DNA from: Gammaproteobacteria bacterium
GTDB lineage: Bacteria > Pseudomonadota > Gammaproteobacteria > SZUA-152
DNA: 64,000 nucleotides
Assembly (NCBI GenBank): GCA_013152545.1
Contig: JAADGF010000105.1
Span: 27,950 to 91,949, forward strand
Reading direction: 5' to 3'
The position numbers were made by a program, and so were the translations under genes. Shown in pieces: positions 8,921-39,029 of this stretch. A model generated the notes under the pieces. It was not told the DNA's origin. It did not search any database and was given only the letters and a program-made list of their open reading frames with translations. Positions within the stretch are counted from its first letter, which is position 1; each line of letters starts with the position of its first letter.

Positions 8921-9382
8921 ACCTTTCACAAACAGGCATGCCTCGGAAAACAACGTGCATTAAACCTAACACATCAGCTGAATCTACTGCGAACGCCTAT
9001 CACACAGAATCTAAAAGACTTTTACCTTCAGCGCTTTCGTTACGATTCAACTGATTTATTGTAGATTGAAGCAACTCGCTGATGTGTTGCTGTGCTTTTC
9101 AATATAACCCGATTCAATGCAACGTGACCCAACATACAGAGTGCATCGTCGATCCATCCTCAGTTAGAAAGCCGCTTATATCGCACTCTTTATTCGGAAA
9201 ACCTGCCCGCGATGGGTATATAAGGGCAGATTTCAAAGAATCAAGCAAAAGACAGGTACTTTTTTCGTAGAATTAAAATCCCGTGATGCTTAGACTGCAC
9301 CTATGCCAGCAGTGCAATGTCCTCCTGGAAGAAAACTTGCACGTTTATAAGTACACTGATAAGCCTTGCAACTCAACAAAAC

Positions 9383-10426
9383 TTAAATCCGCGCCTTTAA
9401 TACCGTCCCCAATATTTTTGCCGTCACATCAACAATGGGAATCACCCGGTCATAAGCCATCCGGGTGGGACCAATGATGCCTAACGCACCAATAACACTG
9501 GTACCATCACTATAAGTAGCTGTCACGACACTGCACTCGTCAAGCACTTCATAACCGGATTCATTACCGATAAAAATCTGGATACCCGGTGCCTGCAAAG
9601 ACTCATTCAATAGTTGCAAAATACTTCGTTTCTCGTTAAATGCTTCAAAAAGTTGTTGTAAGCGCTTAACATCCGCAATTTCTTCATAATTCATTAGATT
9701 GGTTTGGCCCGCCAACACAAAATCGTGTTGCGCAGTATCCTCTTTGAATATTTTTTGTGCCATTTCAATCGCATTGAGCATTATCCGGTCCATGCTCTCC
9801 CGCGCGTCCTTCATCTGCGTTAACAGGGATTCCCGTACTTGATTCGCTTCTTTGCCAACTAATTCGTTATTAAGACAATTAGAGATATTTTCCAATTCGT
9901 GCTGAGAGTAATTACGATCGGTATAAATAATCCGGTTTTGAACATCACCCTGATTAAACACCAGAATCGCCAAGACTCGCCGGTCTGAAAGTGGTAAAAA
10001 CTCAATATGGCGAATACTGGACTGCTCACGATCTGGCAACATCACTACACCCGCCATTTTGGTTAACCCGGACAAAATGGAAGATGCAGATTCCACTAAT
10101 AATTGCGTATCTGCTTCAGCATCCAACTGCTCCTTGAGTTGTTCGACCTGTAGCGACTTCATGGGCTGCATGGTTAATAAGTTATCAATAAACACACGAT
10201 AGCCTTTTACCGTCGGAATACGGCCCGAAGACGTATGAGGTGACTTAACGAGCCCTAAACGTTCCAGATCAGCAATAACATTGCGAACGGTGGCTGAACT
10301 AAGCTCCAAACTGGATTCACGAGCTAACGTCGTGGAACCCACCGGCTGACCCTCACGAATATAATATTCCACCAGTGTTTTGAATAACTGCTGCGCTCGT
10401 TGATTTAATATCGTTTTATCTACCAC
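9383..10426 (-). CDS. hrcA: heat-inducible transcription repressor HrcA
   Basis: 347 aa with GTG start; HTH N-terminus LVEYYIREGQPVGSTTLARES and HrcA C-domain. Confidence 0.93.
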   Translation of the reverse strand: MVDKTILNQRAQQLFKTLVEYYIREGQPVGSTTLARESSLELSSATVRNVIADLERLGLVKSPHTSSGRIPTVKGYRVFIDNLLTMQPMKSLQVEQLKEQLDAEADTQLLVESASSILSGLTKMAGVVMLPDREQSSIRHIEFLPLSDRRVLAILVFNQGDVQNRIIYTDRNYSQHELENISNCLNNELVGKEANQVRESLLTQMKDARESMDRIMLNAIEMAQKIFKEDTAQHDFVLAGQTNLMNYEEIADVKRLQQLFEAFNEKRSILQLLNESLQAPGIQIFIGNESGYEVLDECSVVTATYSDGTSVIGALGIIGPTRMAYDRVIPIVDVTAKILGTVLKARI

Positions 10427-10521
10427 AAGCTTCCAAATTTTACCCTATTCATTAAAATCAACCGAAACGCACGCTATTGCGTAACCCATAAGACAAAAAT
10501 AGATACCGCCAAACTCCTATT

Positions 10522-10682
10522 TAAGTAGGTGAGCATAATTATTTTAACAAACAATCGCAGGATATTTTATGGCCTTCAAGACGCTGCGAAGATGAGCATC
10601 GTGAGCTATGTGATCGTAGCAGCAACGCAGAAGGCCGGAAAATAGACAAAAAAATGTTAAAATAATTATGCTCACCTACTTA
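10522..10682. repeat. 28-bp perfect inverted repeat (taagtaggtgagcataattattttaaca) flanking a 105-bp core
   Basis: Left arm 10522..10549 is the exact reverse complement of right arm 10655..10682. The core carries two ATGA-coupled mini-ORFs (MAFKTLRR, then MSIVSYVIVAATQKAGK) behind an AGGA Shine-Dalgarno. Confidence 0.8.
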
Positions 10683-11222
10683 TAATCGGGTCTGTTAAAA
10701 CATCATAAAGCATTCCCATCTTACCAAACGCGCACTCACTGATTTTTTAATCGTCCTACAGGTAATGGATCGAGCATACGACCTAAACACCAAACCCAGT
10801 AATATCGCAACATTATAGGCGTTACCCAAGCCTTGTGAAGCAGTATTAAAGCCAATAAAAAGTTTATATCGAGCCGCTAAATGTTTTATGATATTGAATC
10901 TATTAACACTTTATTCAAAATCGTGCAAAAAGTAGAATAAAGAACCAGTACATCAGTCACAACAAGACTTGAGATTACATCGATATAGCAGTATTTTATG
11001 TATAGTTTATAAACAGAACGTATATTTACACGAGGAAATCGTATCCTTATCATCCTTAGAGTCGTTTATTATTTTCGCCAGATAATTTAGCGATTAAATC
11101 GATCAAACTCAATAAACAATACAATCATGTCGGCTTAAATAACACCACCTTGTGTCTACATTGAAATGCGTTTTAAATATACACCTAAACTTTGAGACAC
11201 TTTCTATAATTGGAATATAAAG

Positions 11223-12101
11223 TTGGAACAAAAATTCAAAAAAATTGGTCTTATTGGCAAACACGGTGATGATCGTGTTATCACAGCGCTTAATGATTTA
11301 AGCGCTTACCTCCTTGCTCATGACAAAGAAGTTTACCTCGACAAAATAACGGCCCCGTTGGTCCCAGAATTGTCGCACGAAATATTGGAACGCGCTGATC
11401 TGGGCAAATTCGTTGATCTTGCAATCGTCATTGGTGGTGATGGCACCTTGCTTAATGCTGCACGCAGCCTGGTAAGCCATGACGTACCATTGTTAGGCAT
11501 CAACTTAGGGCGCTTAGGTTTTTTAACCGACGTGTCGCCCACCGACCTGCATGATAAACTCGATAAAATATTTGCTGGTGAATACACCGAAGAGCCTCGC
11601 GGTTTGTTACACGCAACAATCGAACGGCATGGCGAAATTATCAGCAAAAGCTGTGCCTTTAATGATGTTGTTGTGCATAAATGGAACGGTGCACGCATGT
11701 TAGAGTACGAAACCTTCATCGACGGCTCGTTTATCAATACCACACGCTCAGATGGATTAATCGTATCAACACCCACTGGTTCAACAGGTTACGCATTATC
11801 AGGGGGTGGCCCCATTCTCCATCCGAGCCTGCACGCCATTGTGCTCGTTCCCATTTGCCCTCATACCATGACCTATCGACCCATCGTTGTCTACGCTGAC
11901 AGTAAAATTAAAATAGTCGTGAAAGACTGTAATCAAGCGGAAGCGCAGGTCACCTGCGACGGCCAGATCAACTTGGGATTACAGGCTGAAGACAGTATTC
12001 ACATTACTCGCGAAAAACACCTTATTCGTCTCATACACCCCAAAAGTTACGATTACTATGAAATGTTGCGAGCCAAACTCCATTGGGGAAAAAGACTTTA
12101 A
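11223..12101 (+). CDS. nadK: NAD kinase
   Basis: 292 aa; GGDGT motif; aligns along its full length with E. coli NadK. Confidence 0.95.
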   Translation: MEQKFKKIGLIGKHGDDRVITALNDLSAYLLAHDKEVYLDKITAPLVPELSHEILERADLGKFVDLAIVIGGDGTLLNAARSLVSHDVPLLGINLGRLGFLTDVSPTDLHDKLDKIFAGEYTEEPRGLLHATIERHGEIISKSCAFNDVVVHKWNGARMLEYETFIDGSFINTTRSDGLIVSTPTGSTGYALSGGGPILHPSLHAIVLVPICPHTMTYRPIVVYADSKIKIVVKDCNQAEAQVTCDGQINLGLQAEDSIHITREKHLIRLIHPKSYDYYEMLRAKLHWGKRL

Positions 12102-19877: not shown

Positions 19878-20357
19878 CGCTGTACTCCCTTTCAAATTCT
19901 ATTGTTGGCAAAAATATTTCGTGACAAAGTAAGGAGGTGTGTCAAAATAACGTGAGCATTTGGGTATCCAGGCGCCTACTCAACTACTTCAACTACTCAA
20001 CAAGGCTTTCGAACCTAATGTTCGAACAACGGGAATGAATAAACAACCAGATGTTCACGTTATTTCGGCACACCTCTCGTTAAGTTATAGGATCAATAAT
20101 TCGTATTACGTTATTAGTGTTACAGCAATAAAATTGAGGAATGATGCAAAATATTGTCCTAAATCCATCGGCAAGCGTGCATTTGTGTTAGCATGTATTC
20201 TATTGCTTAAGCCAATGCTTGTTTAAGTCACCGTTATTGTAAGTTAAAGATGTAAGTCAAAGACAGCAAATATCGACACTACCCAATTGAGCAGGTTTGG
20301 CAAACGATCCATCGGGTTCTCGATTACAATGATAGTAACAATATTTTTTTCGATTTA

Positions 20358-26069: not shown

Positions 26070-26665
26070 TATGCCACTCCAATTTAGCGCTTGGTTGCAC
26101 TCTCATTTTCCCTGTTGGTTTTTCCTCTATCCGCATCCCCTGTTCGGTTAGCATAGGAACGTGCAGGTTTCGTTCCTTATTACTTAAAAAGACTATATTG
26201 CCATTAACCTAGAAAAATCAGTTAGACAGCCTGCATAGCGCCTTCACCAAATAGGTGAATGTCAATTTCAGTACAATCTATTCAATTAATCGCCAGTTAG
26301 TTACTCCTCATAGCGGTCAACTGATTTTTCCAAGTTTAATTTCTAGGTTTAATGATAGTACTGTTAAGAGCTGTTCTCAATCATTTCAGTCAATGACAAC
26401 AATAATTACAAAACCATCCCATTTCGCGCTATCCTAAAATCATCCGTGGAATGCTAGGGGGGTGTTAACAATCAACTCAGAGAAGAGAAAAAGGTAAAGG
26501 TCGTGCAATACCGAGGAAATCCATATAATGAATTTAGGCTTATGCCGTAATAAAGAAAAGAATGTAAAGACGCTATCCAACCACTAACGAAATGTACAGC
26601 AATCACTCAAATTACCGTTGACTTACTCTTCGGCAATGAGGAAAAAACCTGGCAACGGCTACTTA

Positions 26666-38846: not shown

Positions 38847-39029
38847 GGAGCCTGCCCGAGAATAGAAGCCTACTGCAAAAACGCCATTTTGAGTGCATTT
38901 TTTTCGATCATTTTCATTAAATAGGCTCAACATTCGCCTCAAATGCTAAAAATAGGTGCCTGATGCAATCGAAAAAATGCACTCAAAATGGCGTTCCCTC
39001 GCGACGACTGCTTTTCTCGGACAGGCTCC
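38847..39029 (+). mobile_element. family-2 palindromic MITE-like element, full copy 2 (~183 bp), between leuA start and pssA stop
   Basis: ggagcctgcccgagaatagaagcctactgcaaaaacgccattttgagtgcatttttt...aatgcactcaaaatggcgttccctcgcgacgactgcttttctcggacaggctcc; the right half is the reverse complement of the left. Track ORFs 38670..38924, 38727..38942 and 38939..39238 are artefacts of it. Confidence 0.85.

Follow-up and report, generated by a model that had tools for sequence, protein, structure and literature searches.

What is the perfect inverted repeat that lies between the divergent hrcA and nadK genes of this gammaproteobacterial contig, and does it act on either of them? Within the window (the whole stretch of DNA analysed here, 64 kb in length), a 28-nt arm, TAAGTAGGTGAGCATAATTATTTTAACA, at positions 10522-10549 is the exact reverse complement of positions 10655-10682, and 105 nt separate the two arms. 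A sequence-only reading of the locus had described this repeat, the pair of overlapping mini-ORFs inside it and the AT-rich spacer around it, all of which we find as described, and had offered four explanations: a tiny MITE, an invertible promoter-type switch, a small hydrophobic toxin-like peptide embedded in a hairpin, and a leader-peptide regulatory structure for hrcA or nadK. Only the MITE is supported by our analysis. We propose, with a probability of roughly 80%, that the 161-bp unit is a non-autonomous transposable element (MITE) moved by a transposase encoded elsewhere, and that it inserted at a TA upstream of hrcA. The element is ordinary selfish DNA without a gene, and not a switch, a toxin or a leader-peptide device.

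The spacer between hrcA and nadK measures 796 bp, has a GC content of 30-40% and separates genes with clear Pfam assignments (Table 1). The outer neighbors, also identified by Pfam, encode RecN and Fur in one direction and GrpE and DnaK in the opposite one. The HrcA protein of the window is 100% identical to NCBI NOZ54479.1, from a gammaproteobacterial MAG. A search for the CIRCE operator with up to three mismatches found none in the 64-kb window.

Table 1. Features of the element and of the divergent spacer in which it lies, in window coordinates.
Feature	Position	Strand	Basis
hrcA; start 95 nt from the element	9383..10426	-	Pfam HrcA, 1.2e-67
hrcA-proximal half of the interrupted host motif, AATAGG in hrcA sense; with TA and the other flank it gives TATAAATAGG	10516..10521	-	MAFFT alignment
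Left TA, copy of the target dinucleotide (putative target-site duplication)	10522..10523	.	TA in other copies; single TA in empty sites
Left terminal inverted repeat, AGTAGGTGAGCATAATTATTTTAACA	10524..10549	+	Exact reverse complement of 10655-10680
Interior, 105 nt, imperfect palindrome; upper part of the hairpin	10550..10654	+	Fold; family alignment A2; consensus pairs
Mini-ORF 1, MAFKTLRR and stop, judged spurious	10569..10595	+	Window copy only; absent in 7 other copies
Mini-ORF 2, MSIVSYVIVAATQKAGK and stop, judged spurious	10592..10645	+	Window copy only
Right terminal inverted repeat	10655..10680	-	Exact complement of the left repeat; arm identity across copies
Right TA, second copy of the target dinucleotide	10681..10682	.	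Empty sites; TA in other copies
nadK-proximal flank, plus strand TAATCGGG; with the right TA it forms a plus-strand TATAAT	10683..10690	-	Sequence; alignment
Sigma-70-like match TTCACA-16-TATAAT facing hrcA	10812..10839	-	Consensus scan, 11/12 positions; not conserved in relatives
nadK (NAD kinase); start 540 nt from the element	11223..12101	+	Pfam NAD_kinase and NAD_kinase_C

We count the unit as 161 bp, made up of an element proper of 157 bp (AGTAGG...CCTACT) and a TA on each side. Together with short flanks it folds into one long hairpin: 186 nt around the element fold at -73.9 kcal/mol, compared with -35.5 ± 3.9 kcal/mol for shuffled sequences (z = -10). Because the whole unit folds as a single hairpin, the interior between the perfect arms must itself be an imperfect palindrome. 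The two arms are the only matches in the 64-kb window to the 28-mer at up to three mismatches (0 further matches expected by chance) and to the arm 15-mer at up to two mismatches. Rfam covariance models gave no relevant match between positions 9000 and 12500 at E ≤ 1.

Outside the window, the terminus recurs. Scanning species-representative genomes, and separately metagenome contigs, for the arm 20-mer AGTAGGTGAGCATAATTATT gave 25 loci, and a profile built from eight copies served for a second round of searching; together, these place the family at about 17 distinct insertion sites in other genomes and metagenomes. A Zetaproteobacteria MAG carries three copies (L002, L007 and L008), a Methylococcales MAG and matching contigs from Saanich Inlet contain others (L003, L005, L009, L017, L019, L022, L023 and L025), and FXBE01 carries one (L021), which over its full length shares 78.5% identity with the window copy, with 27/28 and 28/28 matches in the arms. 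Four copies in JACKQG01 (L014, L015, L016 and L024) lie at contig ends and all differ in their flanks, as is typical of an assembly-breaking repeat. Copies that do not contain the exact 20-mer were added by the profile at L009 7269-7431 (L009b), L019 8332-8492 and 9936-10099 (L019b and L019c) and L032 2729-2891 (L032b); L019 holds three copies in 13.5 kb, and L002 additionally holds a decayed half copy. More distantly, the cyanobacterium Leptothoe spongobia (L006) carries a 126-bp hairpin element that shares the first 23 nt (TA and 21 nt of terminus) and the TA flanks, and that is only loosely related to the family beyond them. Taxon labels are those of the records, with which neighboring genes agree: the UvrA relatives of the L008 locus are Mariprofundaceae, and an identical PilU in the Saanich population is named Methylococcales.

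Some of the loci returned by the scan were set aside. Those at L001, L004, L012, L013, L020 and L026 are apparent chance 20-mer matches inside coding sequence, and those at L010 and L018 lie at the ends of ordinary genes and are neither family elements nor a partner. The plasmid collection and the viral contigs contained no match to the family. Many dispersed copies had been named beforehand as the mark of a plain MITE; we find such dispersal across genomes, while the 64-kb source stretch holds one copy, with no second one detected there by the profile. Searching the literature for the terminus strings gave no relevant match, only mouse primers. Judged by these literature strings, Rfam and the plasmid collection, the MITE family is undescribed as far as we have checked.

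The copies share their ends far more than their middles. They are 148-184 bp long, apart from one internally deleted copy of 49 bp, and have the form TA-AGTAGG...CCTACT-TA: TA stands at both ends of all but one of the 13 complete copies tabulated (12/13), and at the end that is present in all four contig-end copies (4/4). The sole exception, L019b, has TC at a position where it adjoins another repeat. Sequence beyond the TA is unrelated between sites. Arms match the window arm at 21-28 of 28 positions in 17 of 18 comparisons, including copies that were not ascertained through the 20-mer, and the left 28-nt arm is identical at 26-28 positions in eight of nine other aligned copies, all from other organisms; the truncated arm of L005 is the exception (13/28). 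Near-identical 26-nt termini are common to Gamma- and Zetaproteobacteria and a cyanobacterium. Interiors, by comparison, are only 45-68% identical, and the motifs CGCAGGATATTTT and GGAAAATAGAC in the interior of the window copy are common to part of the family (alignment A2). The perfection of the window repeat had been taken to imply recent origin or selection. The repeats are indeed perfect, and we attribute this to termini that are conserved throughout the family, as expected of transposase binding sites, rather than necessarily to youth.

All of the complete copies checked are intergenic (12/12). They sit between convergent, divergent or tandem genes, in mixed orientation to their neighbors. 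At two places the element touches a reading frame: the contig-end copy in L014 abuts a 300-aa ORF (46-948) that ends at a TAG inside the element terminus, and the stop codon TAA of pgl in L008 (4734-4736) combines the final T of the element with the TA.

Other small repeats accompany the family. The Saanich Methylococcales population contains a second MITE family, which we call B, of ~145-165 bp with inverted repeats GGTAACNCGCAATAAATAAACTACCCAT and TTA/TAA flanks. A B element adjoins a copy of the family studied here at three genomic places (L005 4723-4866, L009 6474-6636 and L027 6152-6311), which suggests either that B preferentially targets the T-TA with which the latter ends or that both elements move together. 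The window itself has a perfect inverted repeat at 38880-38995, with 24-nt arms AACGCCATTTTGAGTGCATTTTTT around 68 nt, that looks like a different MITE-like hairpin element. Four further inverted-repeat units, at 19934-20076, 942-1071, 1265-1334 and 26206-26336 (70-143 bp overall; arms of 18-30 nt, 81-89% complementary), could represent additional small repeat families, or else terminators.

Comparison with close relatives shows the hrcA site in its empty state. The element is absent from three relatives whose HrcA is at least 90% identical and falls in the same 90% cluster (L036, L037 and L038), and from a fourth at 89% (L011). All four share the gene order of the window, recN-nadK<>hrcA-grpE-dnaK-dnaJ, with nadK-hrcA spacers of 532 and 433 bp in the relatives versus 796 bp in the window. 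Aligned with MAFFT (window, L036/L037/L038 and L011), the spacers are mostly diverged, and all four relatives keep the block TGAAATA..TATAAATAG(G)..GAGTGTATGCGTTT..TTGTGCTATAGGTTG. The window element sits inside TATAAATAGG, a motif conserved in three related lineages. Read in hrcA sense, the filled site is ...GATTA/TA-AGTAGG...CCTACT-TA/AATAGGAG (slashes mark the limits of the 161-bp unit), and taking out the element and one TA restores the conserved TATAAATAG(G) 10-mer of the relatives exactly. A further TA is already present in the flank, and a 2-bp duplication is therefore indistinguishable from no duplication on the basis of this pair by itself. The interval that separates the element from the promoter-like site farther from hrcA (10683-10811) also contains, in the window, ~60 nt, running from about GGTTTGGTGTTTAGG to about GCGCGTTTGGTAA in hrcA sense, that have no counterpart in the four relatives; given this extra sequence, the spacer of the window has grown by more than the element.

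A second filled and empty pair, the cleaner of the two, comes from the Zetaproteobacteria. At L008 the stop codons of uvrA and pgl face each other across the element, giving ...CTTGT-TA-[element]-TA-AGTTTGAACGTACA, and in L039/L040, whose UvrA is 94% identical, the two genes abut at ...GGGT-TA-GGGTTTTACGTACA, with a single TA. To the right of the element, 10 of 14 positions agree with the empty site, and no indel interrupts the collinearity. On the left, ~25-30 nt next to the element have no counterpart in the empty relative, and for this reason the pair is good but not perfect. Both pairs show a lineage-specific insertion at TA and are most simply explained by duplication of that TA. With about 17 unrelated sites sharing the same termini and TA flanks, and with the orthologous site empty in four relatives, the tiny MITE considered at the outset is the explanation that stands. 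Looking for an empty site in the Saanich Methylococcales by way of PilU (23 contigs) yielded none, as the ten places listed all carry the same insertions wherever they are reached, and L032, considered as an empty site, differs by a rearrangement instead.

Described bacterial MITEs are A+T-rich sequences of <200 bp that have terminal inverted repeats and 5′-TA-3′ termini, duplicate their target and give rise to long stem-loop transcripts (PMC2229807), and because its profile matches this description the element fits the class. What we find is a unit shorter than ~300 bp without a conserved ORF, with conserved terminal repeats, dispersed copies, and filled and empty sites that differ at a TA. 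In the mechanism that we envisage, the two 26-nt termini would be the recognition sites of a transposase encoded elsewhere; this enzyme would excise the element from another site, or copy it there, and the element would then enter the TA ~100 bp upstream of hrcA, with the TA being duplicated.

Among prokaryotic insertion-sequence families, duplication of a TA target is typical of IS630/Tc1-mariner. The family likewise has a TA target that appears duplicated on insertion, subject to the adjacent TA in the window and the neighboring indel at L008, and judging from the TA target alone the enzyme would be a TA-targeting DDE transposase of IS630/Tc1-mariner type. We found no pair of AGTAGGTGAGC-type termini enclosing a transposase gene in the loci examined, the plasmid collection or the viral contigs. 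The half copy in L002, considered as the end of a partner transposon, is a decayed remnant.

Does the insertion nonetheless matter to its host genes? In the relatives, the TATAAAT that it interrupts is found ~100 nt upstream of where hrcA starts, and it may be the -10 box of hrcA. If so, the insertion would have split this conserved motif, and hrcA would then be read either through the hairpin, from the promoter-like site upstream, or from a hybrid promoter that uses the TTAAAA of the terminal repeat. Were the upstream candidate promoter (Table 1) used, transcripts of the hrcA 5′ leader would include the element. Facing nadK on the plus strand is another promoter-like site, in which the TTAAAA of the right repeat is followed by an 18-nt spacer and a TATAAT made of the TA and the flanking TAAT.

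From these features one could argue for an exapted regulatory hairpin that controls hrcA or nadK, either as a leader target of RNase III/E or as a donor of an outward -35 element. Correia and ERIC elements offer precedents for such roles (PMC2229807, PMC10969869), the insertion is 95 nt upstream of hrcA within a motif that three related lineages conserve, the near-consensus site upstream could place the hairpin in a leader, and the TTAAAA-18-TATAAT junction faces nadK. We nevertheless consider exaptation unlikely. The consensus scan found six promoter-like sites where 3.6 were expected, a frequency near background, and these matches therefore carry little weight. Moreover, in the relatives this operon is regulated with no element present, and the mixed orientation to neighboring genes across the family argues against a general RNA-level role. 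The same comparison speaks against the leader-type regulatory structure proposed from sequence, as the closest relatives lack the element altogether. Most likely, the net effect of the MITE on its host is neutral or mildly modulatory.

The hairpin itself is conserved among copies. RNAalifold, applied to ten copies, gives 48 consensus pairs with 95.3% of cells paired, and sliding the partners by 1-3 columns reduces pairing to 37-48%. Compensatory double changes are present at 12 of the 48 consensus pairs, and the covariation exceeds that of all 500 column shuffles. Much of this signal lies between subfamilies, whose interiors are almost unrelated and each palindromic, and the between-subfamily pattern could also be explained if each subfamily started as a fold-back of a different parent end. 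Within the single Methylococcales population, however, six copies still show eight pairs with compensatory double changes, and one pair in the Methylococcales copies occurs as C-G, U-A and A-U. The full-length hairpin would appear to matter for the element, whether in mobilisation or as a transcript.

One clade adds an asymmetry between strands. The arms of L009b, L019b, L019c and L032b differ by 7-11 G.T wobble positions versus 0-1 A.C. One strand of the three copies of this clade that were folded (L032b left out) is ~16-20 kcal/mol more stable as RNA than the other, and across the L009b/L019b/L019c clade and the Zetaproteobacteria copies one strand folds 15-24 kcal/mol better. No such strand asymmetry is seen in the window copy, L021, L017 or L005. 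The wobble and strand asymmetry hints at selection on a single-stranded form, in few independent lineages and with mixed orientation to transcription. We do not argue for selection at the RNA level, the folding asymmetry being clade-specific and the orientation to genes mixed.

Taken alone, cut-and-paste movement of double-stranded DNA accounts neither for the compensated pairing of the interior nor for the G.T excess of one clade. Because of this compensated interior turnover, the one-clade G.T excess and the lack of a known transposase, we allow for a variant in which the family is a TA-flanked hairpin that is kept or moved as a single strand, and in which the window copy perhaps replaced the hrcA promoter by splitting the TATAAAT box. 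We rate this combination as somewhat less probable than regulatory exaptation.

A related alternative dispenses with the DDE enzyme: a REPIN-like element or TIR dimer, moved as a single-stranded hairpin by a Y1/HUH transposase (RAYT/TIRYT) through a GTAG-containing foot. Such a mechanism would suit a hairpin that is held by compensatory changes even within one population, as well as the strand-specific G.T excess (7-11 versus 0-1) and the strand difference of 15-24 kcal/mol in one clade. The termini also contain GTAG (TAAGTAGG...), the tag of REP sequences (PMC3733652). Yet one arm taken alone shows no self-complementarity (0 to -0.6 kcal/mol) and hence is not a REP unit, and its GTAG is paired with the CTAC of the other arm rather than left as an unpaired tag. 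The TA at both ends and the single TA in empty sites point to target duplication, which HUH transposition does not make, and neither the window copy nor L021, L017 or L005 has the wobble asymmetry.

Two Y1 genes could be seen as partners for a hairpin of this kind. The relative L011 has a Y1_Tnp gene 8 kb from hrcA, with AGTAGGTGA directly 5′ of its ATG, and L014 has a Y1 homolog on the same contig as a family copy. Around the former, however, the profile detects no family sequence; the latter lies ~1.75 kb from the copy with other ORFs between, and the 64-kb window contains no Y1 gene. The gene in L011 (2001-2864) encodes a 284-aa Y1_Tnp protein (PF01797), a second copy of its 3′ end is present at the start of the locus (1-22), and it has no counterpart in the window. 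After arm folding and examination of the L011 and L014 neighborhoods, we judged the RAYT lead weak, and we regard HUH-mediated movement as less probable again than the variant above.

Far less credible is a device specific to this locus, be it an invertible promoter switch, a hydrophobic toxin embedded in a hairpin or a leader-peptide attenuator for hrcA or nadK. Perfect inverted repeats do flank a 105-bp core, mini-ORF 1 is preceded by an AGGA Shine-Dalgarno 6 nt before its ATG (AGGA-N6-ATG), and its stop overlaps the start of mini-ORF 2, which is hydrophobic, in an ATGA. However, the seven other copies in the alignment all lack both mini-ORFs, even L021 with its 78.5% identity, which leaves a toxin-like or leader peptide unsupported; and no recombinase gene accompanies HrcA, NadK, RecN, Fur, GrpE and DnaK in the neighborhood, which leaves the switch unsupported too. 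As the same family also occupies unrelated loci in other bacteria and the orthologous region of four relatives lacks the element, a locus-specific device is already largely refuted. Least probable of all is an assembly artefact: the source is a MAG contig, in which a fold-back chimera could yield a perfect palindrome, but homologous elements with the same architecture and termini occur in independent assemblies from other samples and organisms, and the interior palindrome is imperfect.

Among known elements, Correia/NEMIS (CREE) of Neisseria is the closest to this MITE in architecture, with no sequence relation seen. Correia elements are ~105-155 bp long, have TA termini with TA duplication and form one long hairpin (PMC2229807, PMC10969869). 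Outward promoters and cleavage of the transcript by RNase III are described for them (PMC2229807, PMC10969869), as are IHF sites and even inversion (PMC10969869). Like the family described here, they are mostly intergenic, often immediately precede genes and lack a known cognate transposase, and their terminal repeats are of similar length (24-26 bp versus 26-28). The family described here differs in its hosts, which are uncultured marine Gamma- and Zetaproteobacteria, and no IHF site was identified in the element. Against the Correia terminus, compared without alignment, similarity is seen only as TA-AGT-GG at the tip.

Other families resemble it in part. RUP of Streptococcus pneumoniae is also a small TA-targeting MITE, and its partner IS630-Spn1 was assigned from terminal-repeat similarity together with the TA target (PMC2229807). 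RUP thereby has a known candidate partner, whereas the IS630 link of the present family comes from the TA target only, and the terminal repeats of RUP comprise 9 contiguous bp as against 26-28 here. ERIC/IRU (RU-1) of enterobacteria shares an imperfect palindrome (~127 bp or more), TA termini with duplication, intergenic location and long stem-loop transcripts; it differs in having 7-bp terminal repeats and experimentally shown, orientation-dependent effects on mRNA stability, and has no sequence relation to the family. REPINs and their RAYTs are alike in having two inverted conserved arms around a spacer, a hairpin, GTAG near the outer ends, many copies and intergenic positions (PMC3116915, PMC3733652). 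The arms of the present family, in contrast, are not self-palindromic REP units, a TA duplication is indicated, and no RAYT flanked by copies was found in the window, L011 or L014.

Together, these findings define a new MITE family of the Correia/ERIC/RUP type, carried by uncultured marine Gamma- and Zetaproteobacteria and related to an element in a cyanobacterium. For annotation, neither this palindrome nor its mini-ORFs should be called a gene, a switch or a riboswitch-like leader. The family is also a source of assembly breaks, with four contigs ending inside copies. As it is common to uncultured marine lineages, it could mark horizontal exchange among them, and its insertion upstream of the gene for a heat-shock repressor could alter expression of hrcA-grpE-dnaK in the lineage of the window.
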